Virus record (IMG/VR): IMGVR_UViG_3300010885_044958
Span: 1-64,000 of that record
Length of the DNA stretch: 64,000 nt
Reading direction: 5' to 3' (one strand)
From: a virus
The notes below the pieces were generated by a model, which saw nothing but the letters and a program-made list of their open reading frames with translations, was not told where the DNA came from and searched no databases. Of the stretch, positions 2-54,038 are shown one piece after another (the first letter of the stretch is position 1; every line of letters begins with the position of its first letter). Made by a program: the position numbers and the translations under genes.

Positions 2-3000
2 CAATTTTTACCTAATAATATTACGCATAGATATAAAGATCCACGTAATGCTCCTCCTGATAAAGTATTTGAAAGATTCATAGATCCTATTCGATATAGT
101 CAACCTTGGACAGTAGAAGGAGAGGCTGATCAATATGAGCATGAGAAACACAATGGCAACTATAACTCTATAGTAGACAGAGTGATGTCCAATAACAAAA
201 CCTATCAATCTGGTGGACCTGGACCTGCTCCATATATAACTCATGATCCTAATGATCCAAGGATACAGGCACATGCTGATAGTAGTGCTGTTTATAATTC
301 TTACATAGAAAATAAAAATGCTTTGGAAAAAAACGGATACACTCCAAAGAAAATAAAAAGTGGTTTATTTAGTGGAAAAGATTCTAAAGAAGGCCAAATT
401 AGAAATTTTGAATCAAATAATTATTTGGATTGGTTTTCCCACATGAAAAAAGATTCACCATATAAAAAAGATCTAGGTAATGGAAAATATTTATTACAAG
501 ATTTGGCAGATCAAATGGTAAATACAGACTTACCTTACCAGTTATTTGATTCAAATATAAAACCCAAAGGAGTAAATATATATGAAGACCCCAATATATA
601 TGCCTTTGCGCCAAAAAATATGGATATTCCCCGAACTCAAGATAAATTAATACCCTGGAAACAAGACATTAGACCAATATATAATTATGAAAATGCAAAA
701 CCAGTACAAGATGTAATATATCAACCACAACAACCACAACTATCTATACCACAACCTAAGCCTGAACCTAAGCCAAAACCTAGAACCAAACAACAACTAC
801 AACCAGTTCCTATAGAACCACACCACTTCCCTACAACCAGACAAGAACCACAACCAGAACAAATCAATATAAATGATTGGAACCCAAATGAGGAACATTG
901 GAGTTCACCAGTAACAAATCCGTTTACACCTGCAGGGTTTTATAAACAGAATATAATACCTGGACAACCTCCAGTACCAACTAGACAAGAAGGTGGTCAA
1001 ACACAACAAGATCCTAATTCAAACTTTAGTTGGCTTTCTGAAGATATACAACAACCTCAATTGCAAAACCCTAAAAGAAATTATAAAGGCAGAAATAGAA
1101 CTAAGCCTAATAGGAGTGAGTATATGCCGCATCCATCTGTAAATAAATTTCAAGGTGGTGGTCAACCAACACAACAAGATAGTCTAGATATTTATAATAA
1201 TGCATTGGCCGTAAAAAAATTTTATGACACAAATGATTATAAAAATACACAAACGATTCAAGTTAAAGATTCTCCCACTAAAATTTTTCAAAAACTCGAT
1301 CAATCACGAAAAGAATTTAAAGCAATGCCAAAAGTAGAAGTTGCATACGATCCTTCTCTAGAAAAATACGATACATGGAATGATAAAGAAACATCAGATA
1401 GAGAAAAATTAAAAGGGAGGTTGCATCCTATATTGCCGGAATCTTATTACAGTCAAACAATAGATAAAAACAAGAGGTTACAGCGAGAAGATGCAATGGG
1501 TATACTCAACCTTAAAGCCCCAATGACACTTTATGATAAACGAATTGCCCCACAACTGTATTATGAATACGGAAACAAAAATGAAAAAGACCCTTTATGG
1601 GGGGATGCAGTAGATATCTATGGTTATGATCCTGTTGCAGTGAAACCTTGGAATATGCAAACTCCACAGGAACAACAAGAACGAGTTAAAAAATATGGTT
1701 ATCCAAAACAAGTATTACCAAAAGATGATAATAAACCATACGATGATAACTATGGAATAACTACAATAGATCCATTTACAGGAAATACTAATTTTGAACA
1801 CTATAATAGTAGACAAGAACAGAAAAATGCAATGAAAGGTATTTATCCAAAACAAAAATACGGTGGTTGGTTAGATTCTTATCAAAGTGGTGGGCAGAAG
1901 ATAGGTTATACAGATATGGTCAAAAAACCTATAGAACCTACAGTAAACCATACAGCTATACCGGGTTCTGCACCAAGACCTTTAACTCCTGAAGAGCAGT
2001 CCTACAGAGACATCATGAACCAACCTGCTATAGGTGCTAAACCTGGACAGAGACAAGTTATGCAGAATGTCAGGAACACCATGTCAAGAGTTGCAGGAAA
2101 ACTACCTGAACCTTTTGGTATGGTAGCATCTCCAGTAGTAGACTTTATGAGTTATCCGGCACAGGCAGTAGTAAATGTTCCTACACTTGATCAGTATGAC
2201 TGGAGTAGTGCAGACAGAGGTTTATCCCAAATGGCAATAGATGTTATGTCAGCGTTACCACTTATACCTACTACAAGGTATGAAAAGGTACCTATAGTTT
2301 ATGGAGAATCTAATGTAGCTCCACATGATCCGTACTCATCCATAGAACATGGTTATGCTAAATGGGCACCAAGAAGTAAAGGTCCTGTACGATTAAGATC
2401 TGAAATGACACCCACTATCACTAATCCTAATCCTGCAGATTGGCCTGAGATTAATCCGGGGCAACATTTAGATGCACATGGTTATCCTATAAAACCTAAC
2501 GAGACTCATGTATCTATAAGTAATAATACAGGAGGATGGGATCCTACTACAAGTAACCCATGGTCAGATGCTAATATAGGTAAAGGATATAAACGTCCTG
2601 CAAAATTAGATATATTAGGAAATACTAAACTAACACCTTCTGAACAATTTAAAAGAATAGAGTTTGCAAATAAAACAGAAGGGAGTACAGCTACTGAACA
2701 ACTTCTTGAAAATGCAAATAATCATCAGAATGTAATGAATAATCCTAAATTACAGAATGATATAAAAAATGTCATACAAGAAAGAAGGATGCGAAATACA
2801 TTATTTCCAGGTAAGTCTGACAACGGCTTGATAAATTCTTTAAAGAATCACTTTGCAATGGAGGATGATGATGTGGTAAGAGCATTGGATCAATATAATC
2901 CCTCATCACCAGCTACTAAATATAAATCACAAGAACTGGATGAAGCTATTAAGCATCTCAATGAACAGAGTAATCATTATGACTTAATTGCACCTAAGAA

Positions 3001-3343
3001 TAAACCTAACACATTCCCTATAAATGAAAGAGTTGGATTTCAGGAAGGGCAAGCAAAGTATTTCTCTTCTCAACCACCCAATGAACAGTTAATAGAGAAT
3101 AACTCATGGGCAAGTAAAGCTAACTGGAAAGGGTTTGGTCAAGAAATGAGAGGTGCTATGAAACAAATGAATCTTGATCCTGCCAATGAACAAGAAGTTG
3201 AAATATTTAGAAAGTTGCATATGGAAAATATAAAAGATCGTGCACTTAATCAATATAAGCCTGCAGGGTTAAATGTATTCAATCATATGTCACAACAGAA
3301 ATACGGAGGCAAAATACAAAATAATTGGCTCGATAAACTTTAA
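2..3343 (+). CDS. Modular virion-associated protein, 5'-truncated by the window edge (>1113 aa)
   Basis: The frame of the listed 182..3343 ORF is open back to base 2 (QFLPNNITHRY...YSQPWTVEGEADQY...). It contains repeated YQSGG/RQEGG/FQGGG/KYGG motifs and Pro/Gln-rich linkers. Confidence 0.75.
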   Translation, partial: QFLPNNITHRYKDPRNAPPDKVFERFIDPIRYSQPWTVEGEADQYEHEKHNGNYNSIVDRVMSNNKTYQSGGPGPAPYITHDPNDPRIQAHADSSAVYNSYIENKNALEKNGYTPKKIKSGLFSGKDSKEGQIRNFESNNYLDWFSHMKKDSPYKKDLGNGKYLLQDLADQMVNTDLPYQLFDSNIKPKGVNIYEDPNIYAFAPKNMDIPRTQDKLIPWKQDIRPIYNYENAKPVQDVIYQPQQPQLSIPQPKPEPKPKPRTKQQLQPVPIEPHHFPTTRQEPQPEQININDWNPNEEHWSSPVTNPFTPAGFYKQNIIPGQPPVPTRQEGGQTQQDPNSNFSWLSEDIQQPQLQNPKRNYKGRNRTKPNRSEYMPHPSVNKFQGGGQPTQQDSLDIYNNALAVKKFYDTNDYKNTQTIQVKDSPTKIFQKLDQSRKEFKAMPKVEVAYDPSLEKYDTWNDKETSDREKLKGRLHPILPESYYSQTIDKNKRLQREDAMGILNLKAPMTLYDKRIAPQLYYEYGNKNEKDPLWGDAVDIYGYDPVAVKPWNMQTPQEQQERVKKYGYPKQVLPKDDNKPYDDNYGITTIDPFTGNTNFEHYNSRQEQKNAMKGIYPKQKYGGWLDSYQSGGQKIGYTDMVKKPIEPTVNHTAIPGSAPRPLTPEEQSYRDIMNQPAIGAKPGQRQVMQNVRNTMSRVAGKLPEPFGMVASPVVDFMSYPAQAVVNVPTLDQYDWSSADRGLSQMAIDVMSALPLIPTTRYEKVPIVYGESNVAPHDPYSSIEHGYAKWAPRSKGPVRLRSEMTPTITNPNPADWPEINPGQHLDAHGYPIKPNETHVSISNNTGGWDPTTSNPWSDANIGKGYKRPAKLDILGNTKLTPSEQFKRIEFANKTEGSTATEQLLENANNHQNVMNNPKLQNDIKNVIQERRMRNTLFPGKSDNGLINSLKNHFAMEDDDVVRALDQYNPSSPATKYKSQELDEAIKHLNEQSNHYDLIAPKNKPNTFPINERVGFQEGQAKYFSSQPPNEQLIENNSWASKANWKGFGQEMRGAMKQMNLDPANEQEVEIFRKLHMENIKDRALNQYKPAGLNVFNHMSQQKYGGKIQNNWLDKL

Positions 3344-3345
3344 AT

Positions 3346-3385
3346 GTTTAAATAGTTAATCTTAAATAAATATTGTATATTTTAT
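3346..3385 (+). promoter_or_regulatory. Putative late-type promoter (GTTTA...TATATTTTA)
   Basis: TATATTTT at 3376-3383 lies upstream of the ATG at 3414. A similar element lies upstream of 8924. Confidence 0.45.
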
Positions 3386-3413
3386 TACAGATGCGTTATA
3401 ATTAAAAAATTTT

Positions 3414-5273
3414 ATGAAAAATACAAAATTGCACCCAATAGCAAAAAATTTAGGCTACTCTAGTAATGAGGACTTTTATAAGGACTTTGATACAAAAGAG
3501 AAGTATGATGCCTATATGCAACGTGGTGGACAAATAAATGTTCAGCAAAATCAGGCAATGCCGATAGACCGGACTGTGCAAAACAATTTCAGAAATACAA
3601 CTGAAACTAGATCTGATGGCTATAAAAGACCTAATCAAATACCTTTTGTAATGCAACAAGGACCAAATGTCTTGAAAAAAACAGGTGGCCCAGGTAGTCC
3701 TAATAACAATTATACTAACGCAGGTGGTATTTATAGTTATCAGCAGGGCGGTATTGCATCTAATTATACTTATAATCACATGCCCCAACCACCACAAAAT
3801 CCTGCAGGTTATAATCAAGGTGAGTGGAATAATGAAATGGGAAAAACTTGGAGGCAACAAAATCTACCACAACAAACAGTAGATCAAGAATATGCTGGAT
3901 TTGGCAACCCAATGTCTGATGTAAATTATAAAGCACCTGGAGATGTTTCTGGATTTGGGGCACCCCAGCAAGGTGTTCCTGCAAATACTCCTAGAGGAAT
4001 GGCTGCAACCGGATTTCCTACTTTAGAAGAAGCTAAGGCAAAAGCTAGGAATAGACAAAATCCAATAGGACCATCTGCACCAGAATCTGATTACTCAATG
4101 GCTGCGGTTAGATCTGGAAATCCAGCACCACAACAAAATCTTAGAGATAATAGTAACTATGGTTGCGAGGCAGATTTAAATAATTATAAGTCTGGTGGAA
4201 TACATATTAAACCAGAAAATAGAGGTAAATTTACTGAATATAAAAAAAGAACTGGTAAAACTACTGAAGAAGCATTGCATTCTAAAGATCCCCATGTGCG
4301 ACAGATGGCAAATTTTGCAAGAAATGCAGCCAAATGGCATCATCAAGATGGTGGACCAGTAAATCCACAACAATACATGTATAATCCAGGAGGCAATTAC
4401 CAAGTTGGAGGATTGTACCACAATCAAACAAATCCAAATTATGGCACCTTTACTCCAGAAGGAATTAGAGTAGCACAAATGGGTTGGAATGGAGCACCTA
4501 TTCCTACAGCAAATAATCTAAGAGGTCAAGAATACGGATGCCCACAAGATTTAAATTATCAGGTTGGTGGTCTTTATGCAAATCAAACACAACCTAATTA
4601 TGGTACTTATACTCCTTTTGGTATAAGAGTTGCACAACAAGGAGATAATAATACAGCACAACCAGGAAATGTTCCAGGTAGTGGTCCTGGTGGTATGGAT
4701 AATAGTTTTGACCAAGATAATACTAGTTCACAACCAATTCTAAATCAACCTGGAAACAGACCTGGTTCTGGTCCTGGACAAATGGATACAGATATGGATC
4801 CAAATGACCAAAGTGATTTTGAAAAACAGAATCTACAAGATATGTCAAATGATATGTCAAATAGTAGATCTTCTTCTAAACCCAGATCTAACTGGCCTGC
4901 TTATGTGGGTGCTGGAATAGGTGCTGTTACTGGTGCATTAGCAGGAATCGGCGCAGTTGCAGGTAGAAATCAAAAAGCAAGAAATCAAGCAGGTGCAAGA
5001 ATGAATCAAGGAATGACTAGTTCTAAATATCCTCATAGTAATCCATTAGGATCTAAAGGAGATCAAGGAATAGTTGGTCAAGGGTATGGGCAGAATCTTT
5101 CTCATTTTGGTGCTGGTAATGTAGGTGCGTTTTATCAACCTATTGCACAACAGGGTATGATGGTTACTCCATATCAAAATGGGGGAATGTATCAAGCTGG
5201 CAGCGAACACGAATTGCCAGATCACGAAATCCAGAGATTGCAAAAACTAGGTTACAAATTACAGATTCTATAA
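3414..5273 (+). CDS. Low-complexity Gly/Gln/Asn-rich virion protein with YQxGG repeats and a glycine-zipper segment
   Basis: Many [YM]QxGG/AQQG motifs, a basic module GIHIKPENRGKF...ANFARNAAKW, and the hydrophobic stretch YVGAGIGAVTGALAGIGAVAG. Confidence 0.75.
   Translation: MKNTKLHPIAKNLGYSSNEDFYKDFDTKEKYDAYMQRGGQINVQQNQAMPIDRTVQNNFRNTTETRSDGYKRPNQIPFVMQQGPNVLKKTGGPGSPNNNYTNAGGIYSYQQGGIASNYTYNHMPQPPQNPAGYNQGEWNNEMGKTWRQQNLPQQTVDQEYAGFGNPMSDVNYKAPGDVSGFGAPQQGVPANTPRGMAATGFPTLEEAKAKARNRQNPIGPSAPESDYSMAAVRSGNPAPQQNLRDNSNYGCEADLNNYKSGGIHIKPENRGKFTEYKKRTGKTTEEALHSKDPHVRQMANFARNAAKWHHQDGGPVNPQQYMYNPGGNYQVGGLYHNQTNPNYGTFTPEGIRVAQMGWNGAPIPTANNLRGQEYGCPQDLNYQVGGLYANQTQPNYGTYTPFGIRVAQQGDNNTAQPGNVPGSGPGGMDNSFDQDNTSSQPILNQPGNRPGSGPGQMDTDMDPNDQSDFEKQNLQDMSNDMSNSRSSSKPRSNWPAYVGAGIGAVTGALAGIGAVAGRNQKARNQAGARMNQGMTSSKYPHSNPLGSKGDQGIVGQGYGQNLSHFGAGNVGAFYQPIAQQGMMVTPYQNGGMYQAGSEHELPDHEIQRLQKLGYKLQIL
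4395..4643 (+). repeat. Intragenic direct repeat (~90 nt, two copies)
   Basis: NYQVGGLYHNQTNPNYGTFTPEGIRVAQMG (4395-4484) vs NYQVGGLYANQTQPNYGTYTPFGIRVAQQG (4554-4643). Confidence 0.9.
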
Positions 5274-5299
5274 CATGTTAATACCTAAAACTCAATAAA

Positions 5300-5704
5300 A
5301 TGGCTAATTTCAAACTCGCATGGGCTAAGACTAGGATTCACGAAGGAGGTTATGTCTTAGATAAGGATGATGCCGGGAAAATGACATATAGAGGAATCTC
5401 ATATAGGAGTTTTCCAAATTGGCCTGGTTGGGCAGAAGTTATTAAATCTAAAAGACTTCGTGGAGATATAATACTTACTCTAGAACCTCTGGTAGAAAAA
5501 TTCTATATAGACAATTTCTGGAATCCAATAAAAGGCGATGAAATTATAAATCAAGAAGTTGCCGATGAATTATTTGATTCTTCAGTTCTTCTAGGCATAC
5601 ATCAATCAGTAATACTTACTCAAAGATCTTTAAACATACCTGAATCTGGTAAAATGGATTCTTCTACTTTAAATATTTTAAATCAAAACAATCCTTATGC
5701 TTAA
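5300..5704 (+). CDS. Glycoside hydrolase family 108 lysozyme (endolysin)
   Basis: N-terminal HEGGY...D..DAG..TY.GI motif, followed by Y...FW...GD and LFD..V..G, typical of GH108. Confidence 0.88.
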   Translation: MANFKLAWAKTRIHEGGYVLDKDDAGKMTYRGISYRSFPNWPGWAEVIKSKRLRGDIILTLEPLVEKFYIDNFWNPIKGDEIINQEVADELFDSSVLLGIHQSVILTQRSLNIPESGKMDSSTLNILNQNNPYA

Positions 5705-5948
5705 ATACTTATTTGCATTTTTACTAATTTTTTCAGTGCAAAATGCATCCGCACAACCAATAGACTCAGTAGCTTACTACAGACATAAATGGTTGCAATA
5801 CAGTCTAAAAAATGACACATTAATGCACAAGAACTATATACTTAACAAAAGACTAAACAAATTAGTATTTTACGAAAATCTAGTTATAAAGAAACCAGAA
5901 TATATAAAATTCTTGAAAGGTTGGCAATGCAGGACGCTTAGTAACTAA
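5697..5948 (+). CDS. Small secreted/periplasmic protein (possible lysis accessory)
   Basis: Signal peptide MLKYLFAFLLIFSVQNASA with an AxA cleavage site. Overlaps the lysin stop by 8 nt. Confidence 0.6.
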   Translation: MLKYLFAFLLIFSVQNASAQPIDSVAYYRHKWLQYSLKNDTLMHKNYILNKRLNKLVFYENLVIKKPEYIKFLKGWQCRTLSN

Positions 5949-5951
5949 CTG

Positions 5952-6208
5952 TCTGATCTAACCGATTTGGTAAATAGATTGGTGATAAAAACAAGTCAGG
6001 GCAAAGCCCTAGCCCTAACAAACTTTACCCTGACTACTTCTAACCGATCAGTATAAATGAGTTGGCGAATAGCAGGAAACAAGTCATGAAGACCTTACTA
6101 CTCTTTAAGATAAAAAAACTTAAAAGAAACAATCATTCCCGGTTCCTATGGTTGAGGTTCGGTATGCCATCCTGATTATATTGGCAAAGATTTCTATCAG
6201 TTCGGGAC
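5952..6208 (+). ncRNA. Candidate structured RNA / cis-regulatory element
   Basis: Intergenic region of higher GC with a duplicated unit (CTAACCGAT...TAAAT...TTGGYGA...AAACAAGTCA). Several stems, including GTCAGGGCAAAG/CTTTACCCTGAC, TCCCG/CGGGA and TGCCA/TGGCA. Confidence 0.4.
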
Positions 6209-6226
6209 AATAAAAAAGCCCATTTA

Positions 6227-6511
6227 ATGATTTCGAGAGAATCACCAAATGAGCTAGATATATTAAAAATTGATATATCCCAAACTGATCTTAGCATAGA
6301 ATCTCTCGAATCCTATAATAAAATATACAACAATATTTTCAAAAAACCAAATGCAACTAATAAACTGGTTCAAACAGTTCTCACACCAAGACAGGTTGCT
6401 ATGTTCAGAGCCTGTGTAAGCTATAGAAGGTCCAAGAAGTTGCACTTGGTAAGCAAAAATACGTTATCTTTGTTGAATAACAAAATTAATCTTAAATATT
6501 TTAAATTCTAA
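6227..6511 (+). CDS. Hypothetical protein
   Basis: 94-aa ORF. Its 3' part overlaps a promoter-like TATCTTTG (6465-6472). Confidence 0.4.
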   Translation: MISRESPNELDILKIDISQTDLSIESLESYNKIYNNIFKKPNATNKLVQTVLTPRQVAMFRACVSYRRSKKLHLVSKNTLSLLNNKINLKYFKF

Positions 6512-6515
6512 TACA

Positions 6516-8855
6516 ATGCCTAAAATAAAAATTCTCGCCGCACCCCAAGAAAAAATGGCAATGGGCGGTACTCAAAGACCTCCTAAACAAGGTCCATATG
6601 CTGGTCAATCAGGCTGGGCATTAAACACCGGACAAAGGTTTTTTGATCCTACATTTAGCACTAAAGACCCATTTAAAGCCACTAATACTATAGAGGAAGC
6701 AGAACCAGGTCAAGAAACCTTGGAAGCTGAGAAGGGTGAATTTATGACTAGACAAGATCCAGATGGTAGTTTGTCTGCGTTTGATATTGGTGGAAAAAAA
6801 CACTACGCCGGGGGTACAAAAATTGCCGGGCAATCTGGAGATTTCATTTTCTCAGACTTCAAAAAACTTGCACTTGGTGGTCCAATTACTGAATTATTTG
6901 GCAAACCTAAAGATTCTACAAAGAAATATACTCCTGCAGATTTAGCAAGACAATATGATATAAATAAATATAAAGCAATAATAGATAATCCAGATTCAGA
7001 TAACTTGGCTAAAGATACAGCAAAAAGACAAATTAAAGGTTTTGAAAAAAAATTACAGACTTTGGCACTTTTACAAGAAGCGAAAAAAGGATTTCCTCAA
7101 GGTATGCCAGAATTAACAGGTAATAATGAAAAAGGTATTCCACAAGCAAGATATGGTGGAAAATTTCAACAGGGTGGTGGTAATATTTTTCAACCAAAAT
7201 ATGATCAGTTAGTAAATAAAAGTAAAGAATATTTACAAAAAATGTATCCAGACAGTGATGTTGATATATATCAATCATCAGGAGATAGAAATATTCAGTC
7301 ACAAGCAGCTTTACAAAAGAGTGGGGCATCCCACACACCTGTTTCATTACATAATGTTGGTGCAGCAAGAGATTATCATATTTATATAGATGGAAAACTT
7401 ATAGATAATAAAAATGTAGATGTGTATAAAAACAGTTTGTGGAAGGCTGCAGATGAATTAGGAATGAATCATTTAAACGGAAATCCCCCTTCGCAAGATG
7501 ATCCACATCCATTCGGCAATACAGATCCATATCACATAGCTGTTGTAAAAGAAACTAACAATCATGATGCTTATGGTAGATTGCTTCAACAATATCCTCA
7601 AGTAGCAAACACGCCTATATTTAAAAATACTGAAAGTTATTTATCAAAACAAACTGATCCAAAATTGAAAGACTATTATAATCAAATACAACAATATAAA
7701 CCTACACCAAAGAAACAAGAAGGTGGAGTTGATCCGGAATTAAACACACAGGATGCTGGATATAAATATGTTCCTAGAAAAAGGATAGTAGCTAATAATA
7801 CAAATATTGACGGAATTGAATCTTTACCTCTGTATACTACTACTGCGCGTAGAAAAGTAAAAATTGTAGACGTTCCACAATCAGAATTACAACCATTTTC
7901 AAATGAGCCAAGAACCCAAGAAGATCCAACTCCAATAGATATTTCTCAATTAGCCGCAACTTCTACTCAAAATAACTCAGGAATAAATTCAGCAGCAGGT
8001 CAAATAGATACAACTAGCTATAACGCTCCATATGGTATATCAAATGCAGATCGCAGAAATATTTTTGCAAATCTAGCAGTCCCACCAAGACAAGGAGTAC
8101 CTATTAGAAGCACCCCTAGAGTCTCAATTCCTGGTGTTGTGCTACCTGATGAGCGTGCTGCAATAGCTGCCCAACAATCGGCTGGAAATGCTGCTATGAT
8201 GGCAAATGCAATGACCGGTACAGGAGCTAGAGTAAGATCTTCTAATACAGGTATAACAGGAAGACTTTTAGAAGGTTTGCAGCAAATAGAAGGTCAAACT
8301 GCAGGGGAAAAAGCAAAAATTTTGAATGAGGCAAATAGATATGCTGCAGAAGCAATGTCAAAACAATCATTTGCTACTCAAGAAGCCAATCAACAATACA
8401 ACCAACAATCAGATACTGCTAAATTTAACTATGACCAATCTTTTAGAAACTATCTAAAAATAAATGCACAAGATTTTGGACAAGCAGAAAAAAATGCAGC
8501 AAAAAGGCAAAATCTTAATATGATTAATGCCAAAGACCCCTTCTATGCAGACAATAATTCAATACTTCGTTGGAGACAGGGTTATACAGCACCAGATGGT
8601 CCTGGAAGTGGTTCAGGTGCAGCAAGTTATGGTGAAGAAGTTAGTAGGGCTTATGCTGATTTAAAAGCACACAACCCAAGTTGGTCAGAAGATGATCTAA
8701 GAAAAGCTGCGTTTACAATAGTACATTCACAAAAAACCAGAACTAGATCAATGCCTTATCAGCCAGGAAAACAGCAGGTTACAACTAGTGGTTCTCAATA
8801 TGGATTTGATTATCCTACAGGTGCTGAAAATAACTGGCAAGGAATGTGGCAATAA
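6516..8855 (+). CDS. Virion cargo protein with an internal M15-family (L-Ala-D-Glu/D-Ala-D-Ala type) Zn peptidase domain
   Basis: SGDRNIQSQAAL...SLHNVGAARD...DPYHI matches the R..Q / SxHxxGxAxD / DxxH pattern. Also has an N-terminal EAEKGE...HY.GG module and an Ala/Gln-rich helical C-terminus. Confidence 0.75.
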   Translation: MPKIKILAAPQEKMAMGGTQRPPKQGPYAGQSGWALNTGQRFFDPTFSTKDPFKATNTIEEAEPGQETLEAEKGEFMTRQDPDGSLSAFDIGGKKHYAGGTKIAGQSGDFIFSDFKKLALGGPITELFGKPKDSTKKYTPADLARQYDINKYKAIIDNPDSDNLAKDTAKRQIKGFEKKLQTLALLQEAKKGFPQGMPELTGNNEKGIPQARYGGKFQQGGGNIFQPKYDQLVNKSKEYLQKMYPDSDVDIYQSSGDRNIQSQAALQKSGASHTPVSLHNVGAARDYHIYIDGKLIDNKNVDVYKNSLWKAADELGMNHLNGNPPSQDDPHPFGNTDPYHIAVVKETNNHDAYGRLLQQYPQVANTPIFKNTESYLSKQTDPKLKDYYNQIQQYKPTPKKQEGGVDPELNTQDAGYKYVPRKRIVANNTNIDGIESLPLYTTTARRKVKIVDVPQSELQPFSNEPRTQEDPTPIDISQLAATSTQNNSGINSAAGQIDTTSYNAPYGISNADRRNIFANLAVPPRQGVPIRSTPRVSIPGVVLPDERAAIAAQQSAGNAAMMANAMTGTGARVRSSNTGITGRLLEGLQQIEGQTAGEKAKILNEANRYAAEAMSKQSFATQEANQQYNQQSDTAKFNYDQSFRNYLKINAQDFGQAEKNAAKRQNLNMINAKDPFYADNNSILRWRQGYTAPDGPGSGSGAASYGEEVSRAYADLKAHNPSWSEDDLRKAAFTIVHSQKTRTRSMPYQPGKQQVTTSGSQYGFDYPTGAENNWQGMWQ

Positions 8856-45725: not shown

Positions 45726-46901
45726 TTAATTATTTATTAAGTTTAATTGTATAATCCCGTTTTCTAACATTTCTCTGCATTCTGAAAAATCGTTTTTGCA
45801 AATATGCCACGCAATTTCGTCTAGCAACTGATTCCAACCCTTTTTAATTCTAAACTGATGATGTTTACCAAATGCGCCTTCTAGAAATTTTTCATTACCA
45901 TATCGTGCATTATATAAATCTCTTTCTGAATAAGAATATATGCAGGGTGTTTTATCAACTATGTCGATTGCAATATTAATTGGTGGTAATTGTTTATAGT
46001 CTTTTAGATAATAAAAATTTGCATCCTGCTCAATTAATTTTGAAATAAGGTATTGGTAAAAACTCAATTGCATATCATAATTGAACTTATATATATTGTT
46101 TTTGAATTCATGTGTTGAGAACGTTTTCTTAAAATCTACTATTTGATATGTTTTATTCTTGTGGTCAACTCTAAATATATCTAATGCACCTTTAATTGGG
46201 ATTTTTCTGATTTCTGGTTCACGAATTTCATGCCAAGCTATTGGGTCTTCAAATTCTACCTCATAATCATACTCAGCAAAAATTTCTAATTGAAAATGCA
46301 ATTCATTATCAGGAGATTCTACTAGATAATCACGAGTATGCTTGTTTGCCTTAAGGATTTCTATCAGTTCTATTGCTTGCATATTTAAACTAGACGAGAT
46401 TATCTTACGATGATTTGCCTCAGCTAAAATTGAGAAATACGCATTTCCACGTTCTATTATTTTATTTACTCTAGTATCATCTTTCCATCCAGATTGCCAT
46501 TTTTCAGTATTACAGCAAGATAATAAAATATCCCAGTTTTCTGCCAAATCAATTTTTAAAAATTCTGGCTCTTCTGGCAATACTTCATTTAATTCTTTTA
46601 AGGAATTGTTATATTCAATAATCTGATTATAGGTACATTCAATGATTTTGCACTCAGTCTCGCTAGGAATTTTTTCCATATTAGCTATATAGAATCTCTC
46701 TTCTAACTTATCTGGGCATGTTATCAATGTATCCAAAATTTCTCCAAGCAAAAACGCCGGGTTCTCATTTTCATCATCTTCAATATTTTCTACATATTTT
46801 CTGTACCACTTTTTGGGGGAAAAATTGCGCCATGCCTTTATAGAACTTTGACTTATACAAAACCCTCTACCACCACCATTCTTATAATCCGCTGTTTGCA
46901 T
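45726..46901 (-). CDS. PD-(D/E)XK exonuclease (RecE/Cas4-like)
   Basis: ISQS.IK, G...D, KGALD...VDH....IVDFKK, Y..QL.FY. Confidence 0.8.
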   Translation of the reverse strand: MQTADYKNGGGRGFCISQSSIKAWRNFSPKKWYRKYVENIEDDENENPAFLLGEILDTLITCPDKLEERFYIANMEKIPSETECKIIECTYNQIIEYNNSLKELNEVLPEEPEFLKIDLAENWDILLSCCNTEKWQSGWKDDTRVNKIIERGNAYFSILAEANHRKIISSSLNMQAIELIEILKANKHTRDYLVESPDNELHFQLEIFAEYDYEVEFEDPIAWHEIREPEIRKIPIKGALDIFRVDHKNKTYQIVDFKKTFSTHEFKNNIYKFNYDMQLSFYQYLISKLIEQDANFYYLKDYKQLPPINIAIDIVDKTPCIYSYSERDLYNARYGNEKFLEGAFGKHHQFRIKKGWNQLLDEIAWHICKNDFSECREMLENGIIQLNLINN

Positions 46902-48051: not shown

Positions 48052-49596
48052 TTAATCTCTAAACAATGCCTTTCCGTCAAATTGGAATTTATACGTGAGG
48101 TCATCTTTAAGACACCATTCAGATACTTTATCTCCATTTTCAATATCCTTAGCAAATCTATTTTTACGCTCTGTATAATACGCGATCAAATAATCTGAAA
48201 GAAACATTGCGTCTTTACTACTCTTATAATGCGTTTTATAAAAATTTAACACATCAATAAAACTAATTGTGTCTCCACATATAATCTTTTTTATGTTGTT
48301 TTCAGCAAACGCAATTACAGCACGATTCATAAACAACCAATTAACTGCTCTCTGACTATTCAAAGTTGCATCATGCAGTCTGGATTCGCAAGTACCGCTT
48401 GGAGAAAATAACATGTTGATAAAATTCCAATCATAATATCTACAACTTCTTTGCCATTTCTCCCTAATTGGATGCCTCATTTGTGTTCTATTTACTTCTT
48501 GATCCGCATGATGTCCCTCACTTAAAAACTCAAATATTCTATTATAAACCACATCTACAAATTGATCATACCCTTCTTTAGACTGATCTTTAAGTGAGTA
48601 AATAGACATTTTTTTGAGCTTTTGACAATAGTTTTTGCGTTTGATTCCACGATGATCTAGCTTATAATATGGAAACATCTTGAATATATCATCTTGAATT
48701 TGATAACATAACATATACAACGCAACCAGATAAACTCTTTCTTTAGGTAGATTTCCAAGATGAATGTGATAAGAACACCTTATATCTATTTGATTCCTCT
48801 TTTGCAATTCCTTACAAGTGTTTATTATATTCTGAATACCTTTTGCGCCTTCCATTGGAACAGTTACGTACTCAGGTCCACCTTCAAGACTACCATCTCT
48901 ACAAATTACTAGTCCAAGACGATTTTGTAAATAATCAGGCATACTGCCAACAGAAGCTTCAAACTCACACCCAAAACTTGTATTGCCTAAAAACTTTGCA
49001 TACTTTTTTGCATCATCCCCTATTTTCAGTCCATAATTCTTATACAATTCTTTCTTTTGTTCAAATTCCTTTGCATTATCTTCTATGTTATATCCTTTGT
49101 TAGTATAAGATTTGCTTGGACGAATTTTTTCCATTTGATTCTTATCGCCCTTACCAACTTCTCCTGTTTTATAAAATACATTTGCAGAAACGTCTTCAAA
49201 GAAATGCATTTTCAAAATTTCTGGATTCAGTGCAGTATAATTAGAATTTTTCCAGACAACTGGGCAATTATTGTATTCATTTTTAGTGAACCTACCTGTT
49301 ATAACATTGCCAGAAAAATCTACATCAACAATACCATTAATCATTTTCTTAGTATCCTTAATAAACCATTCTCCAGTTTCCCAATCTTTTTCTATTTTAC
49401 CAGAAGTAGTTCTATACCATTTTTGTTCAGATTCAATATAGAATATATCTGTAAAAACACTGTAATACTTGCCTTTAACAAATTTTGTATTCTTTCTATA
49501 TTCTGTTTTTCCATCGTGCGTCTCTACAACAGGAAAACCCAATGAAGGGTTCTCCGTGTAGGACTGTATTGTTGTTATTAATTTTTTTTGTATCAT
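48052..49596 (-). CDS. Putative amidoligase (glutamine synthetase-like COOH-NH2 ligase fold)
   Basis: FGCEFE, DGSL, EYVT.P, C..HIH, RY...N, T.E.R.H.AT. Confidence 0.85.
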   Translation of the reverse strand: MIQKKLITTIQSYTENPSLGFPVVETHDGKTEYRKNTKFVKGKYYSVFTDIFYIESEQKWYRTTSGKIEKDWETGEWFIKDTKKMINGIVDVDFSGNVITGRFTKNEYNNCPVVWKNSNYTALNPEILKMHFFEDVSANVFYKTGEVGKGDKNQMEKIRPSKSYTNKGYNIEDNAKEFEQKKELYKNYGLKIGDDAKKYAKFLGNTSFGCEFEASVGSMPDYLQNRLGLVICRDGSLEGGPEYVTVPMEGAKGIQNIINTCKELQKRNQIDIRCSYHIHLGNLPKERVYLVALYMLCYQIQDDIFKMFPYYKLDHRGIKRKNYCQKLKKMSIYSLKDQSKEGYDQFVDVVYNRIFEFLSEGHHADQEVNRTQMRHPIREKWQRSCRYYDWNFINMLFSPSGTCESRLHDATLNSQRAVNWLFMNRAVIAFAENNIKKIICGDTISFIDVLNFYKTHYKSSKDAMFLSDYLIAYYTERKNRFAKDIENGDKVSEWCLKDDLTYKFQFDGKALFRD

Positions 49597-51890
49597 ACAA
49601 CTGCTGTGTTTAATGTGCGATTGATTAATCCTGCAACCTCTTCGTCATCATTTTCTGTGGCGATATCTGCAATTTTATGCTTTATGTTATCTAAAATTTT
49701 GTACATTGCATCAGTTACTTCTTGAGCATACTTATTTGAAAGCATCCCAGACAATTCATCTACAGAATTATTTAATTCACCAAGAACTACAATCATTTCA
49801 CCAATTTTATCTCTGGCTATTGCCTCATCTATTTCTTCGTGATTTGGTTCATCTAGTTCTGGTTCATCCACTATTTCTGCATTTTCATAAACAATGATAT
49901 CTAATGGTTCTTTCTCCTCTGTTTGCAAAAGTTTTTCTTCTATTGTTGTTGTACTCGAACCTGGAGTATCTATTCCAAGCATTGATTTAATAGATTTTTT
50001 ATTCCAGTATTTATAAGGAATATCTGCAATTCTAAATCGCTTTTCCTCGTATCTTTCTAGAACATTCATTGCATCTTCTATTTCAGTTCTGATACTAGTT
50101 TGTCTTTTTACAGCATCTTCAATAGTCTTAGCAACTTCCCTATCCAGTTCTTCATTATCTGGGTCTAAAGTAGTATTTGGATCTTTAACCATACAATCAA
50201 AAACAAAATACTTTATTGCGTAGTACTGTTGCTCTTTTATTGCATTCATTGCTTCTGCTGCTGTAGTAAACACCTTATCATAAACAGAATCTCCGCCTGT
50301 TTGCAAAGTAAATTCTTCGTAAAACATTTTAGATTCATGCTTCTTATCGGATGTTTTTATGTCTTCCAAATAACCATTCTTTCCTATTGAATAATTTCTT
50401 GAAGAAAACAACGGTGTAAAGCTCTTAGACTTATATCTGTTATCGTCTAAATAAAATCCAAAACGCACATGCGCAGTCTGTCCTGTAGATTCTCCATGTA
50501 TATTTGTTACTGGATACATTGAATATTTACTAATCTGATGAGCAAAATTATGACTCATTAGATCTGGCAAAATCTTTTTATTTTTAATATCATCTTGAAG
50601 ATTATTCCATGCTTGCCCCCCTTTTAACATCACACCTCTATAAAAATAGTAAGCCTGTACATTTTGACCTTCTATATCATACCTTACACCCTTCTTATCT
50701 AACCAGAGTTTACCCATGCACAAAGCCGCGCTAGCATTCGGCATACGAAATCGCCCTTGCCAGAAATAGACCCTCCCACTTCCATCTAATGATTGATAAG
50801 GTCTTGTTTCATTCCAAATCTTTGAGCTTGAAGGTGTTACTCCCGGAATATCAAAAGGAATCATACCCTGTCCTTGTTGACCTCTTGTTATCAAATTTCT
50901 ATTTTGGCAACCTCTATTGTAATTAGGATAACACCCATCTCCATCCCAATTATAAGTATTATTATGCCCTTGATAAGTACTTACATGTACTACTTTTTCT
51001 TTACAATTAGGCCCATATAACCTCTTTACTTCGTGTTTAAATGTAGTAAATTTGCCATTTTTAATTTGCAAAACTACATTATAAGGAAAAACACAAATTT
51101 TATCATCTTTACTTGCTATTGCTCTTAAATATTCTGGAAGAGATGCAAAATACATACCTTCAGTAGTTTTCATATACCACATTGGTCTTTCTTCCCAGAC
51201 TGTATCCCCTTTATCTTCTGATTCATCTGGATGAGCATAATAACTACCGTGATAAACAAATAAACTATTTGGATCTCCTGCAAAATTCCATGCAAGTGCG
51301 GCATCTCCTTCATACTCATCCAATACTTTAAGACCTGCTTTATCTATACACATAGCAAGTCCTTCAGAATCTACTTGGTAACTACTATAAGGTATATTTG
51401 CCTCATTAGTAAGTTTTTGAATGTTACGGATGACTCCATTGTGAACGAGCCGTAAACATTTCTTAGGATCTTCATTTTCAATTGTAAATGGATGATTTGT
51501 ATCTTTTCCAGGAATTCCACCACCAGCAGCTTTACGATTATGAATCATTATTACACCACCATTATAAGTGATATTTTGCACATTATCTAAGTCTGAAATA
51601 AAGTTTTTCCAAGCCTTAGTATCTTTTTTAGTTGCGTTTGGTCCTTTCCAATCATCCCATCCTTTATATACTTCTCCGTTAATAAGCATTCCACAGCCAT
51701 CTCCACCACGATCTTGCAAATATAATCCTAAAATTTTCATTTTTTGGTAGGCAAGCATTTTTTGTGCTTCAGTAATTGCAGCTATCGGGGAAAAACAAGC
51801 CACTCCACATGGCAGTATCCCCGGAGTTCGTTTAAAGCAATTTATCAGTATAATCTGAATTATGATATAATAAAATATTATTGTTGACAT
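49593..51890 (-). CDS. Class II (Ntn) glutamine amidotransferase with an N-terminal hydrophobic leader and a long C-terminal extension
   Basis: CG at residues 28-29, RGGDGCG, HNRKA, HPF, HNGVI.N, VDSE, ERP. Confidence 0.85.
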   Translation of the reverse strand: MSTIIFYYIIIQIILINCFKRTPGILPCGVACFSPIAAITEAQKMLAYQKMKILGLYLQDRGGDGCGMLINGEVYKGWDDWKGPNATKKDTKAWKNFISDLDNVQNITYNGGVIMIHNRKAAGGGIPGKDTNHPFTIENEDPKKCLRLVHNGVIRNIQKLTNEANIPYSSYQVDSEGLAMCIDKAGLKVLDEYEGDAALAWNFAGDPNSLFVYHGSYYAHPDESEDKGDTVWEERPMWYMKTTEGMYFASLPEYLRAIASKDDKICVFPYNVVLQIKNGKFTTFKHEVKRLYGPNCKEKVVHVSTYQGHNNTYNWDGDGCYPNYNRGCQNRNLITRGQQGQGMIPFDIPGVTPSSSKIWNETRPYQSLDGSGRVYFWQGRFRMPNASAALCMGKLWLDKKGVRYDIEGQNVQAYYFYRGVMLKGGQAWNNLQDDIKNKKILPDLMSHNFAHQISKYSMYPVTNIHGESTGQTAHVRFGFYLDDNRYKSKSFTPLFSSRNYSIGKNGYLEDIKTSDKKHESKMFYEEFTLQTGGDSVYDKVFTTAAEAMNAIKEQQYYAIKYFVFDCMVKDPNTTLDPDNEELDREVAKTIEDAVKRQTSIRTEIEDAMNVLERYEEKRFRIADIPYKYWNKKSIKSMLGIDTPGSSTTTIEEKLLQTEEKEPLDIIVYENAEIVDEPELDEPNHEEIDEAIARDKIGEMIVVLGELNNSVDELSGMLSNKYAQEVTDAMYKILDNIKHKIADIATENDDEEVAGLINRTLNTAVV

Positions 51891-51917
51891 GTGTTTGTTT
51901 GTTGTTTTGTTTAAAAA

Positions 51918-51947
51918 TCGGGCTAGAATTATTAGTTCTAGCCCGTT
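51918..51947 (-). terminator. Hairpin (terminator or processing site) within the ligase cluster
   Basis: CGGGCTAGAA...TTCTAGCCCG stem with a T-run on the minus strand. Confidence 0.65.
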
Positions 51948-51956
51948 GTTAATAAA

Positions 51957-52865
51957 TTATTGTTTTACTTGTTCTTTATAGATACCGAGTTGCCTAGCTT
52001 TTTGTCGAGCTATTATTGGTAACTGATCTATATACCTCTGTGCTGTTATAGATCCGTAGCTTGGAGCACTACAAGATTCTATTACGATAAAATCTGGTGC
52101 CTCTCTTTGCTTACCTTTACCGTTTAATTCAGACTGTACTCGCAAATCTATTGCACCTACATCAAGACCTACAGATTTGATTGCTTTTACACATTCTTCT
52201 ACTATAGAATTCCAATTAGATGGTTTTTCAAATGTCTCATTATTTTCCAAAATCCAAACGCAATTATCATCATGCTTTTGAAATTTTTCATTTTCAGGCG
52301 TTCCATTTTTCAACATCTTACGACAAGTATAAAAACATGTACCGTTTACAGCATCAATATGTAACCTATATTCCCTTGAATAAGACATATAGTGTTCTAT
52401 AATATAATTACTCATATCATGTCCGGCTATAAATCTGTTTAATTCTTCTGATGTTTTTATAAATGAATTACCTTCGCCTCTAGACCCAAACAAACTTTTT
52501 ACAATAAGTGGGAATTTTAAATCCTCTATTTTTGCCGTTTTATCTGAACCAGAAACATGAAATAATGAATCTTTATATGTATACCAAGGTGCGGTTTTTA
52601 TTCCTGTCTGTGCAAAACATTTTTTCATCAATAATTTGCTAGAACTATTTTGCACACCTTTTATTTCATTTATTTCAATCATCTTTCCACCACGACTTAC
52701 AGCTTCTTCTGCGATTGTGGTACTACCTAACCTAACCACACATTTAAATGGCATACGAGGCAATTCTGTACGTAATACAGCATGTGAGGGATGACGTGAG
52801 AATACATGAAACTTATGACTTGTAGTTATTACCTTAGGCTGCAACTTCTTCTTTAGAGTATTCAT
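51957..52865 (-). CDS. ATP-grasp ligase (RimK-like)
   Basis: SSKL, FPLIVK...GSRGEG, IE.Y....EYR.H, GLD.GAID, IE..SAPS. Confidence 0.85.
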   Translation of the reverse strand: MNTLKKKLQPKVITTSHKFHVFSRHPSHAVLRTELPRMPFKCVVRLGSTTIAEEAVSRGGKMIEINEIKGVQNSSSKLLMKKCFAQTGIKTAPWYTYKDSLFHVSGSDKTAKIEDLKFPLIVKSLFGSRGEGNSFIKTSEELNRFIAGHDMSNYIIEHYMSYSREYRLHIDAVNGTCFYTCRKMLKNGTPENEKFQKHDDNCVWILENNETFEKPSNWNSIVEECVKAIKSVGLDVGAIDLRVQSELNGKGKQREAPDFIVIESCSAPSYGSITAQRYIDQLPIIARQKARQLGIYKEQVKQ

Positions 52866-53397
52866 ATATTTGTTTTAGATGTAAATAATTTAATCCGTCT
52901 GTTAATACTTCTAGTCTTGGTGTACCATTTTGTGTTCCATTATCATCATAATGTGATATTGCCGAACTAAAATATTTATTTTCTTTATCGTAGTCTTTTC
53001 TATTATCATAGTACCAAACCCTAGCTTCAATTTGTGGGCATTGCAAACTATAAATTTCTAAATTTTCATTCAATTCTACTAAAATACAAATACATTCTAA
53101 CAGAGTAAGACTTGGATAATAGTAATTAGCTAACAAAAACAAATCATGTGTTGATCTATTTTTATGCCCACGACATTGCATTATATTTTTTTCTTTTTCT
53201 TCGGCAGTTTCATCTACCCAAATACAATTATGTTCATATTCTTTATTCCATTTATTCAAAAACCAATTTAAAAATGATTTTGCATCCGGCAATTCATTAT
53301 AATCTAGTTCTTCATTCATTTTAAATCTGCGTTCTTGCAAATAATTTTTTTCGTTAGATGCAATTATTTCTAATATTTCTTGATCTTTTAGTTCCAT
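52834..53397 (-). CDS. Hypothetical protein in the ligase cluster
   Basis: 187 aa. QC....RS..D...L and C..I..RV. Confidence 0.6.
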   Translation of the reverse strand: MELKDQEILEIIASNEKNYLQERRFKMNEELDYNELPDAKSFLNWFLNKWNKEYEHNCIWVDETAEEKEKNIMQCRGHKNRSTHDLFLLANYYYPSLTLLECICILVELNENLEIYSLQCPQIEARVWYYDNRKDYDKENKYFSSAISHYDDNGTQNGTPRLEVLTDGLNYLHLKQIYEYSKEEVAA

Positions 53398-53400
53398 ATA

Positions 53401-54033
53401 TTATAGTTTATCTTCCATTAATTTTTTTAACAAATCTTGGCAATACTTTACTGGTTCTGATTCTACTTGCATAGCCTCTGGGTGCCATTGCGTTCCTAAA
53501 AACTGAGTCTTAGAGAAAAATAGAATTTCTGGTTCAATTGGCACATTCATTTGCTTACCTTCACCATCATCATGATGATTTGATAAATTATCTGCTGCAC
53601 CTATGATTCGATATTCATCTTCTGGCAAATTAAACGGATAACACATTTGGTGATGCATTGAGTTCACAGAAAATACTTTACCATCTTCTGTTTTAATTGT
53701 ATGCCTCCCTGGATGAGAAATATCTTGTATTAATTTTCCACCAGAAACTGCGCAACCATACTGAATTCCTTTGCATGTACCCCACAACTTTTTTCCAAGA
53801 CCTATCGCAGTTCTAATATCAGCAAGTTCTTCATCATGTTCCATTCTAGTAAATCCCCAACTAGCAGAATGCCTCTTTTCTTCGCCATAAATTCTTGTGT
53901 CGATATCGCTACCTCCATTTACAAAGACCAAATCAGCTTCTTCTACAGAATGTACTATTTCTCTATTTGGAACCCAGTTAGAATAACCAGAACCTCTTTT
54001 ACCTGCGTGATATACTTTTATCTTTTTTTGCAT
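53401..54033 (-). CDS. Class I glutamine amidotransferase / peptidase C26 (gamma-glutamyl hydrolase-like)
   Basis: GGSDID...YGE, GTCKG.Q nucleophile, VNSMHHQ, QWHPE. Confidence 0.9.
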   Translation of the reverse strand: MQKKIKVYHAGKRGSGYSNWVPNREIVHSVEEADLVFVNGGSDIDTRIYGEEKRHSASWGFTRMEHDEELADIRTAIGLGKKLWGTCKGIQYGCAVSGGKLIQDISHPGRHTIKTEDGKVFSVNSMHHQMCYPFNLPEDEYRIIGAADNLSNHHDDGEGKQMNVPIEPEILFFSKTQFLGTQWHPEAMQVESEPVKYCQDLLKKLMEDKL

Positions 54034-54038
54034 AATTT

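Follow-up and report, generated by a model that had tools for sequence, protein, structure and literature searches.

The window analysed here, 64,000 nucleotides that make up the first 64 kb of the 134,236-base virus record IMGVR_UViG_3300010885_044958 in IMG/VR, opens with three plus-strand open reading frames (ORFs), ORF1 (2..3343), ORF2 (3414..5273) and ORF3 (6516..8855), whose products carry repeated copies of a short peptide: an aromatic residue or methionine, then glutamine, alanine or lysine, then any residue, and a pair of glycines. The pattern is real, it is specific to the C1-class cargo (ejection) proteins of crassviruses, it is conserved as a peptide, and it is tied to the borders of cassettes. 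These statements are based on the enrichment of the motif, its position at module edges, the gain and loss of cassettes at its copies, its conservation at the amino acid and not the nucleotide level, and the kinship of the proteins with C1, all computed here. With regard to function, we give an even chance to the reading that the aromatic/Met-x-x-Gly-Gly peptide is an uncut joint, a swivel combined with a cap, for extended storage, threading and cassette exchange.

Enrichment of the motif and the class of proteins that carries it

A sequence-only reading of the window had reported roughly 20 copies in these three proteins; all 18 copies that it named stand where it placed them, and the count is 18 rather than about 20. 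Thirteen of the 18 fit [YFKM][QKA].GG, a pattern picked from the same data (ORF1-3) on which it was scored, which matches 13 times in the 2,511 residues of ORF1-3 and twice in the 16,812 residues of 40 other ORFs (Fisher p 2.4e-10); the narrower [YF]Q.GG yields eight and zero matches, respectively. The prefix of the motif precedes 13 of 27 Gly-Gly pairs in ORF1-3, against 2 of 49 in the other ORFs. When the residues were shuffled, either globally or within blocks of 30, the mean number of matches was 0.71 or 0.80, and none of 2,000 shuffles reached 13; Gly-Gly alone is mildly enriched in ORF1-3, with 27 pairs against about 19 expected, a number reached in 35–62 of 2,000 shuffles. These figures confirm the observation. 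The earlier reading had also noticed no copies in the minus-strand enzymes, which is nearly so, although two matches occur there, YKNGG (45726-46901) and KAAGG (49593-51890).

The description of the carriers as virion proteins in general proved too wide. The muzzle protein (1,533 amino acids (aa); record 126169-130770; Pfam PF25731, E 6.4e-15) has a single [YFMW]..GG and the neighbouring 858-aa protein has none, and several such matches are present in only seven of the 109 ORFs of at least 100 aa on the record, namely ORF1 (counted as two pieces), ORF2, ORF3, a Gly-rich capsid protein (three matches), a 481-aa ORF (two) and a 149-aa ORF (two). Three giant ORFs (2,267, 2,985 and 2,165 aa, 7,417 aa summed; window 11993-34279), which by position represent a putative virion RNA polymerase (RNAP) block, contain 15 Gly-Gly dipeptides and no match to [YFKM][QKA].GG, and the 1,021-aa ORF next to them has no match either. 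The counterparts of the giants in phage crAss001 are packaged cargo (PMC10172136), and the packaging of the giants and of the 1,021-aa ORF is taken from that phage. Because the packaged RNAP-block giants carry no copy, a general capsid-loading tag or code, as had been suggested for the motif, is unlikely. The motif marks one class, the C1-class cargo proteins, and not virion proteins generally.

The codons under the 27 Gly-Gly sites vary (GGT, GGA, GGC and GGG; TAT or TAC; CAA or CAG) and match the general glycine usage of the genes; given this lack of codon conservation, it is the peptide and not the DNA that is under selection. A fixed DNA crossover or linker sequence was considered for the motif and rejected, since synonymous codons under the copies vary freely.

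Conservation of the motif in other crassviruses

The Gly-Gly border peptide is widespread and is found in hundreds of divergent C1-class proteins. Among 119 homologues of ORF2, [YFMW]xx precedes 711 of 1,552 Gly-Gly pairs, against a mean of 109 and a maximum of 135 in 200 shuffles, although many of these copies are mutually homologous and hence not independent, and part of the His and Trp signal stems from one conserved module. At 1,421 sites in these homologues, the third residue before the glycines is Tyr in 22%, Met in 14%, Phe in 11% and His in 11%, the second position is occupied by Ala, Gln, Lys or Glu, and no clear preference was found for the residue that follows Gly-Gly. Domains of wall hydrolases detected with Pfam in the homologues, namely SLT, glucosaminidase, YkuD, lysozyme and M23, lie between copies.

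Searches by tblastn with ORF2 returned Crassvirales records only, including IAS virus, DAC15/DAC17 and the "cr" phages, and ORF1 and ORF3 had no match in 50,697 phage records; a search of IMG/VR for close relatives by peptide patterns gave one locus for each. Related copies (FAEGG, YAALGG, FSAYGG, NAFGG and MFAYGG) are present in the syntenic proteins of IAS virus, DAC15 and crAss001, and the syntenic cargo proteins of two IMG/VR relatives have the copies MAxGG, YQxGG and MKKGG. No published description of the motif was found in the literature on crassvirus cargo or polyvalent proteins.

Kinship with the cargo protein C1

In crAss001, the genes for cargo proteins C1 and C2 are located between the muzzle gene and the genes of the virion RNAP (PMC10172136). 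The order in the present record is muzzle, 858-aa ORF, ORF1, ORF2, a GH108 lysozyme gene, ORF3, the 1,021-aa ORF and the giants; ORF1-ORF3 thus occupy the position between muzzle and RNAP block that is expected of C1 genes, the RNAP label of the giants being putative.

At the sequence level, the kinship is carried by ORF2. A profile of 27 sequences of the ORF2 family, searched against PDB, matched no protein other than "Cargo protein 1 gp45", C1 of crAss001 (E 4.5e-8; 7qog_M and four other entries). BLASTP aligned the ORF2 module IHIKPENRGKFT...NAAKWHHQDGG with gp45 residues 374-430 (E 3e-8) and ORF2 residues 261-338 with gp45 374-446 (E 3e-8). Copies are found in gp45 at 209, 263, 332, 427, 562 and 828, and in the profile alignment its FAEGG, AKDGG and NAFGG fall on motif positions of the ORF2 family. 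The Gly/Ala-rich hydrophobic segment WPAYVGAGIGAVTGALAGIGAVAG of ORF2 (4893..4964), read from the sequence and modelled as a helix at 510-531, is a candidate membrane segment and weakly matches a Gly-rich region of gp45. The helical C-terminal region of ORF3 gave a weak BLASTP match to gp45 713-757 (E 0.7), and no relation between ORF3 and C1 was detected by profile search or among PDB chains by Foldseek, the portal-bound domain of gp45 (425-552) included.

The Pfam model of C1, PF25725 (crAss_CARG1), has no match at E up to 10 in ORF1-3 or in P0241, the full-length version of ORF1 described below; it is present in the ORF2 homologues P0032, P0045, P0069, P0077 and P0114. Searches of the PDB sequences by phmmer with ORF2 and ORF3 returned nothing relevant. 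On position and one shared module, ORF1-3 are probably C1-class cargo that an uncultured crAss-like phage carries in its particle and injects, without being members of the Pfam family.

Copies of the motif at the borders of modules

The sequence-only reading had placed the copies at the boundaries of modules that can be swapped, and both parts of that claim hold: in AlphaFold models, copies are often 0–4 residues away from a module edge, all four copies of ORF3 lie in low-confidence linkers and four of the eight copies of ORF2 lie within three residues of a module edge, and modules bounded by copies differ between relatives. All features of ORF1-3 given below are on the plus strand, and copies were located by motif scan.

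ORF2 encodes a 619-aa C1-like cargo protein, mostly predicted to be disordered, with 12.8% Gly and eight copies (MQRGG, KKTGG, YQQGG, YKSGG, HQDGG, two of YQVGG, and YQNGG). Its AlphaFold2 model has a mean predicted local distance difference test (pLDDT) score of 48, with confident islands at 1-38, 132-152, 201-212, 264-310, 515-532 and 592-619; the four copies at module edges (38/39, 263/264, 310/311 and 591/592) end at residues 39, 262, 314 and 591, and such proximity is expected at random for about 11% of positions. In the alignment of 27 family members, with a mean column identity of 15%, the glycines G39, G112, G113, G261, G262, G313, G314 and G332 are invariant or nearly so, G112 being invariant and G113 nearly invariant.

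The N-terminal helical module of ORF2 (aa 1-39; 3414..3530; confident over 1-38) ends in MQRGG, at which its helix 28-37 stops, and is conserved in P0002-P0007. KKTGG (3675-3689) and YQQGG (3738-3752) follow, and then YKSGG and the module shared with gp45 (aa 263-314; confident over 264-310), which spans 4185..4355 with a copy at either side. The two YQVGG copies belong to an internal repeat of about 27 aa, YQVGG-LY(H/A)NQTxPNYGTxTPxGIRVAQ (4398-4478 and 4557-4637); close relatives have two to four tandem units of this type, 25 aa long, each ending in AQ(E/Q)GG.

The last copy, YQNGG, precedes a conserved C-terminal tail ending in ...HELPDHEIQRLQKLGYKLQIL (aa 587-619; 5172..5270; confident over 592-619). 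In 46 of 119 homologues the last motif is within 30 aa of the end, in most cases with a tail of 22 aa; this tail, GG-(E/Q)Y(D/E)L...E(I/L)..L.K.GYK(I/L)..(L/I), mostly of exactly 22 residues, terminates 44–46 of the 119 otherwise divergent homologues. The idea that the N-terminal helical module and the C-terminal tail form an obligate pair was dropped, since by eye each has many different partners; a tally with rough patterns, of which the one for the tail overlooked several true tails such as that of P0002, gave six proteins with both, 19 with the N-terminal module only, 22 with the tail only and 73 with neither.

ORF3 encodes a 779-aa cargo-like protein with four copies, MAMGG, (A)RYGG, FQQGG and KQEGG. 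The model, built from an alignment of 60 sequences, has a mean pLDDT of 69 and is confident at 55-195, 226-398 (patchily) and 501-694; all four copies are in segments of pLDDT below 50 at the edges of domains, while three other Gly-Gly pairs are inside the 55-195 domain. MAMGG is near the N-terminus (6555..6569), where MAYGG is the consensus of the 60 sequences; the copy is present in five of nine sequences, ORF3 counted, and missing in the other four. It is followed by the conserved folded domain (aa 55-195; 6678..7100; ...GGKKHYAGGT...GDFIFSD; pLDDT about 90–96), in which, across the 60 sequences, G93 and G100 never vary and H96 hardly does, and by a linker (pLDDT below 50 over 196-225) with RYGG and FQQGG (7149..7178), in which G214 is invariant.

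Behind this linker is an M15-like peptidoglycan peptidase cassette (aa 216-404; 7161..7727) that ends in KQEGG (7713-7727). It has a candidate M15-type H..D...H signature (SLHNVGAARD at 277 and DPYH at 337) and a weak match to the endolysin family phrog_465 (E 9.3e-4). Of the top five Foldseek matches of the ORF3 model, four are L-Ala-D-Glu peptidases; the best matches, T5, RB49, LysECD7 and ChiX, have weak E-values of 0.26–2.4. Foldseek gave nothing at E of 0.001 or below, and the cassette has no Pfam match. Among nine aligned proteins it is present only in ORF3 and P0125, starting directly after a conserved AKYGG and ending in KQEGG or MQGGG. The remainder of ORF3 includes a long helical, Gln/Asn-rich C-terminal region (aa 501-694; 8016..8597; AlphaFold).

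The part of ORF1 in the window, 1,113 aa, makes up the C-terminal portion of a cargo-like protein of 1,323 aa without a Pfam family; the identical full-length protein, P0241, is encoded on another contig. The first 214 residues are encoded at record 133595-134236, which overlaps the opening codons of the window; the gene therefore runs across the two ends of the record and is not truncated by chance. These residues add the copies EYQSGG and KMQSGG. In the window, TYQSGG (YQSGG 203-217) stands at the end of the HExxH cassette described below, RQEGG (983..997) at the end of a Pro/Gln-rich module ...FYKQNIIPGQPPVPTRQEGG whose counterparts in P0040 and P0028 terminate with RQYGG or RQNGG, and FQGGG at 1148..1162. 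A junction KYGG-WLDSY-QSGG follows at 1856..1894 (KYGG 1856-1867, YQSGG 1880-1894), and the C-terminal KYGGKIQNNWLDKL (3299..3340; KYGG 3299-3310) is a variant of the ...GGWLSKY end of the ORF1 family.

Modules of ORF1 are common to P0242-P0248, P0040 and P0089, and in P0040, P0089 and P0242 they are fused to an ORF2 module and an ORF2-type C-terminal tail. In P0243-P0248 the junction GGWLxxYQxGG occurs within the chain, and these proteins begin and end with halves of it: MGWLKKYQxGG opens four of eight proteins of the family, and six of eight end in ...GGWLSKY(K) or ...WLxKY. Because the same core also forms internal junctions, the natural termini of the ORF1 family look like half-junctions.

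The N-terminal part of ORF1 contains a cassette of the form HESYHEYQ...WTVEGE, at about 109-282 of P0241 (record 133907-134236 and window 2-217). Its last third, with WTVEGE, is in the window at 2..217, and the HExxH lies beyond it; the cassette is a candidate zincin-like peptidase, with the consensus HExxHxxQ...GPLK.P...YYNR...P.T.EGEA. A HMMER scan of 1.84 billion representatives with the first 110 residues of the cassette retrieved 49 clusters, all 49 with HExxH, in which the cassette sits anywhere from position 19 to 2,803; the proteins are 162-3,028 aa long. An upstream Gly-Gly, mostly in motif context, is 30–60 residues away in 39 of the 49, and a Gly-Gly follows within 45 residues of TxEGE in 30. 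In an alignment of 11 sequences, G3, G4, H46, E47, H50 and Q53 are invariant. The sub-threshold Pfam matches are M91 (E 0.0044) and DUF6782 (E 0.026), each in one of 11 members; the family profile found nothing in PDB, phmmer of the HExxH piece against the PDB sequences gave nothing relevant, and the Atlas leads include LPD23 with a score of 0.81, below the level that counts. The family of 49 clusters is unnamed in Pfam and is a new lead; its cassette may be simply one more effector.

What the peptide may do

In the reading to which we give even chances, each cargo protein of the C1 class would be a chain of small cassettes: the M15 wall peptidase, the HExxH cassette, short helical or repeat modules, the hydrophobic segment and the conserved C-terminal tail. 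Nearly every cassette would be bordered by the same peptide, in which Gly-Gly would break secondary structure and serve as a swivel, and the aromatic or Met residue would cap or weakly anchor the adjoining cassette. The cassettes could then fold, unfold and refold independently, and the chain could be stored extended in portal and tail and threaded out from the N- to the C-terminus. We further propose that, because all cassettes share the same border, any of them can be inserted, lost or exchanged without harm to its neighbours; the HExxH cassette, bounded by Gly-Gly in most of the 49 clusters, supports such bordered, mobile cassettes. The swivel-and-cap role and the link to threading are what we infer.

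Several observations weigh against this reading. Tyr, Met, Phe or His stands three positions before Gly-Gly at 58% of the 1,421 sites in ORF2 homologues, each at about 4–6 times background; a residue conserved in this manner would be needless in a passive swivel and suggests that something recognizes it. Of the 119 homologues, 26 have their first copy no more than 25 residues from the start, frequently as MKKxxKYQxGG and with no cassette before it, and free-standing HExxH proteins, such as P0279, retain a copy. The boundaries of indels fall within 4 aa of Gly-Gly in 29 of 122 pairwise cases against about 16 expected, a weakly positive result from a noisy test, since global pairwise alignment fragments low-complexity regions and the cases are not independent. 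The continuity of the chain, considered below, concerns one site in one distant phage and is taken from the available text of PMC10172136. The conserved HExxH cassette of ORF1 could be a processing protease. Finally, the six-frame searches that returned no protease missed PF14395 (COOH-NH2_lig) in this very record, where hmmscan finds it at E 4.8e-9.

If the peptide is recognized, it may be as a docking or sticker code that is bound repeatedly, and left uncut, by one partner, for instance the portal, a paralogous tail-ring protein, a scaffold or another cargo protein, an explanation that we rate as unlikely but serious. A variant has the aromatic residues stick to one another, so that the unfolded thread would be held and ordered, or recruited at assembly. 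Docking would account for the conserved residues before Gly-Gly, for the N-terminal copies without a preceding module in the 26 homologues, and for the ORF1 family, with its MGWLKKYQxGG starts and WLxKY(K) ends. In crAss001, moreover, the portal-bound segment starts inside a copy and short C1 segments bind the walls of ring and muzzle, according to the available text of PMC10172136, and the motif is confined to C1-class proteins, the occupants of the tail and portal channel. However, the partner is hypothetical, the RNAP-block giants, also packaged cargo, manage without a single copy in 7,417 aa, and four of nine close homologues lack the copy near the N-terminus of ORF3. That AlphaFold models the copies as disordered is a further point against docking, or a neutral one if the peptide folds on binding. 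The 22-residue C-terminal tail of the ORF2 family is a better candidate for a targeting or docking signal than the Gly-Gly motif.

Recognition by a protease is the second possibility. The sequence-only reading had proposed that cleavage at the di-glycine frees the cargo domains singly; that a polyprotein is cleaved after Gly-Gly, either inside the head or once it has been injected, possibly by the HExxH cassette in cis, appears to us distinctly improbable. The motif does look like a site, with defined residues before Gly-Gly and a location in exposed linkers at module edges; HExxHxxQ...TxEGE is kept in all 49 clusters, inside such proteins and with sub-threshold hints of M91 and DUF6782; autoproteolysis by metallopeptidases has been proposed for phage polyvalent proteins (PMC5512222, available text); and the 26 homologues with a Lys-rich start and a copy among their first 25 residues, like the half-junction termini of the ORF1 family, favour cutting or at least recognition.

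The crAss001 structure argues otherwise. In the available text of PMC10172136, gp45 residues 425-552 are a single portal-bound density segment, and this segment begins inside the copy NAFGG (A425-F426-G427-G428) and spans G427-G428, across which C1 is modelled unbroken. The intact gp45 chain is there argued to bridge tail and capsid, with peptides of the connecting region detected, and a helix is resolved at 214-245, which begins four residues past G210 of a copy (PMC10172136). The distances between motifs (quartiles 20, 60 and 126 aa; n=592) do not correspond to the domain-sized pieces of a polyprotein: because a quarter of the pieces are of 20 aa or less, cutting would give many tiny peptides and not cargo domains; in relatives, AQEGG closes every one of the tandem 25-aa units. 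Residues after Gly-Gly show no preference, none of the 119 homologues ends at Gly-Gly, and four of nine sequences do without the N-terminal copy of ORF3. Gel bands from about 15 to more than 300 kDa are listed in the available text of PMC6235969.

A protease that would read the motif was sought as well. Six-frame searches for the families S78, C48, C39, C5, S77 and ClpP found none in five crAss-like records, a weak negative given that the tool overlooked PF14395 in this record and that the positive controls for C5 and S77 gave no signal, and a direct Pfam hmmscan of 16 structural-block ORFs found no protease family. The HExxH cassette occurs in one of the five records, this one, while copies are present in C1 of crAss001 and in the syntenic cargo proteins of the other three, all without the cassette; because one of five records has it and all carry copies, it is not the general reader of the motif.

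Docking and cutting might also be combined in a code of addresses and releases, with the copies as uncut docking handles on the walls of portal, ring and muzzle that are cut after injection by proteases of in-chain cassettes, for example HExxH. We see this as a long shot. If true, one injected string would free wall hydrolases and effectors in a set order, and the phage would bear a polyprotein with a portable protease.

A role in the envelope after ejection, in which the peptides would bind peptidoglycan, the membrane interface or a periplasmic protein and aid the assembly of a channel, is in our estimate highly improbable. It agrees with the confinement of the motif to proteins that have wall hydrolases (M15 in ORF3; in homologues SLT, glucosaminidase, YkuD and lysozyme) and a hydrophobic segment, with the expectation that gp45 forms a trans-envelope channel (PMC10172136, available text), and with the WLxKY junction cores, which appear rich in residues of the type found at membrane interfaces; against it, the motif has no match to known wall-binding repeat families in Pfam at E up to 10, and the location at cassette borders is left without explanation. 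To the view that the motif has no function and is a by-product of Gly/Gln/Tyr-rich low complexity or recent internal duplication, for which the Gly-rich and mostly disordered ORF2 and its two repeated YQVGG copies might speak, we give practically no credence, since none of the 2,000 composition-preserving shuffles reaches the observed count, the same borders surround unrelated cassettes in hundreds of divergent proteins, and the motif glycines are among the most conserved columns.

Genomic setting

A crassvirus major capsid protein is encoded elsewhere on the record (Pfam PF23898, E 1.5e-23). Both ends of the record fall within the ORF1 gene, positions 1-13 of the window overlapping record 133595-134236; because of this overlap, the record seems to be circular or circularly permuted, and the 73% estimate of its completeness may be too low.

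Between ORF2 and ORF3, in the stretch at window 5300-5948, is the GH108 lysozyme gene (PF05838, E 7.4e-15). It shares sequence with the beginning of an 83-aa ORF, the product of which has an N-terminus (MLKYLFAFLLIFSVQNASAQ) that resembles a signal peptide; the two may be a lysis or entry pair. Beyond the giants, the remainder of the window is a minus-strand block of smaller genes. Pfam hmmscan confirmed Amidoligase_2, GATase_6, ATP-grasp, Peptidase_C26 and COOH-NH2_lig at 48052-54863 on that strand; these families, with a COOH-NH2_lig of the phiEco32-like kind, are found in consecutive genes at window 48052-56457 (minus strand). The GGQ end of Pup is an analogy for the modification of Gln-x-Gly-Gly peptides by enzymes of such a cluster, an idea that we do not use.

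Significance and relation to known systems

The structure of crAss001 raised the question of how several megadaltons of protein are stored and injected. A border peptide shared by the cargo proteins would explain the extreme mosaicism of the C1 class, would give a sequence rule by which C1-class proteins can be found and dissected, ORF1-3 having no Pfam family, and would provide a precise experimental handle in cultured crassviruses.

Several viral proteases, those of adenovirus, African swine fever virus (pS273R) and poxviruses (I7L), cut after GG or AG, and the leaders of double-glycine bacteriocins are cut after GG by C39 peptidases. As in the viral polyproteins, a short peptide that ends in GG lies in exposed segments of virion proteins, and, as with the leaders, some of the proteins studied here have a short N-terminal stretch that ends in GG. 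The hydrophobic residue of the adenovirus consensus is one position nearer to GG than in the present motif. These systems further differ in that C5, C48 and C39 were not found in the five crAss-like records, which is weak evidence, and in that at least one copy of crAss001 appears uncut in the available description of its structure.

Capsid-targeting and loading tags are exemplified by the capsid-targeting sequence of T4 and the loading peptides of encapsulins; in contrast to these, the Gly-Gly motif is not a feature of the whole class of packaged cargo. The tape measure protein of lambda, gpH, which is trimmed near its C-terminus to H*, resembles the C1-class proteins in leaving through the tail and has HFATGGF (733-739) and GYATGGY (778-784) near the C-terminus; however, two copies compare with about 0.7 expected by chance in a rough estimate, and no homology to crAss-like proteins was seen.

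We know of no repeated border peptide in the ejection proteins of podoviruses T7 (gp14/gp15/gp16) and P22 (gp7/gp16/gp20). Like C1, these are stored in the particle and expelled before the DNA, with roles as wall hydrolases and in channel formation (PMC10172136, available text). Polyvalent proteins of phages and conjugative elements are likewise large, built of shuffled domains and delivered with DNA, and they often have lysozyme or peptidase domains together with a metallopeptidase domain proposed as the processor (Iyer et al. 2017, PMC5512222). They differ in that no shared border peptide is described in the available text of that paper, in which "linker" and "glycine" have 0 occurrences. 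The cassettes found here are also much smaller (median inter-motif distance 60 aa), and the putative link to the domain families of polyvalent proteins is the LPD23 lead, at a score (0.81) below the level that counts.

The closest counterpart is C1 of crAss001 (gp45; 7QOG, 7QOI, 7QOJ, 7QOL and 8CKB; Bayfield et al. 2023, PMC10172136). It differs in that its Pfam model PF25725 has no match here, that C1-type features are here spread over three genes with M15 and HExxH cassettes, and that the second residue of the motif is Ala in crAss001 and mostly Gln here; the motif is unmentioned in the available text of PMC10172136. It has in common with the present proteins the genome position, the module of about 55 aa found in ORF2 (GG-IxIK..N.GKFT...NA..W...GG), a Gly-rich hydrophobic segment and, where the segments resolved in its structure begin or end, about six copies of aromatic-x-x-GG.

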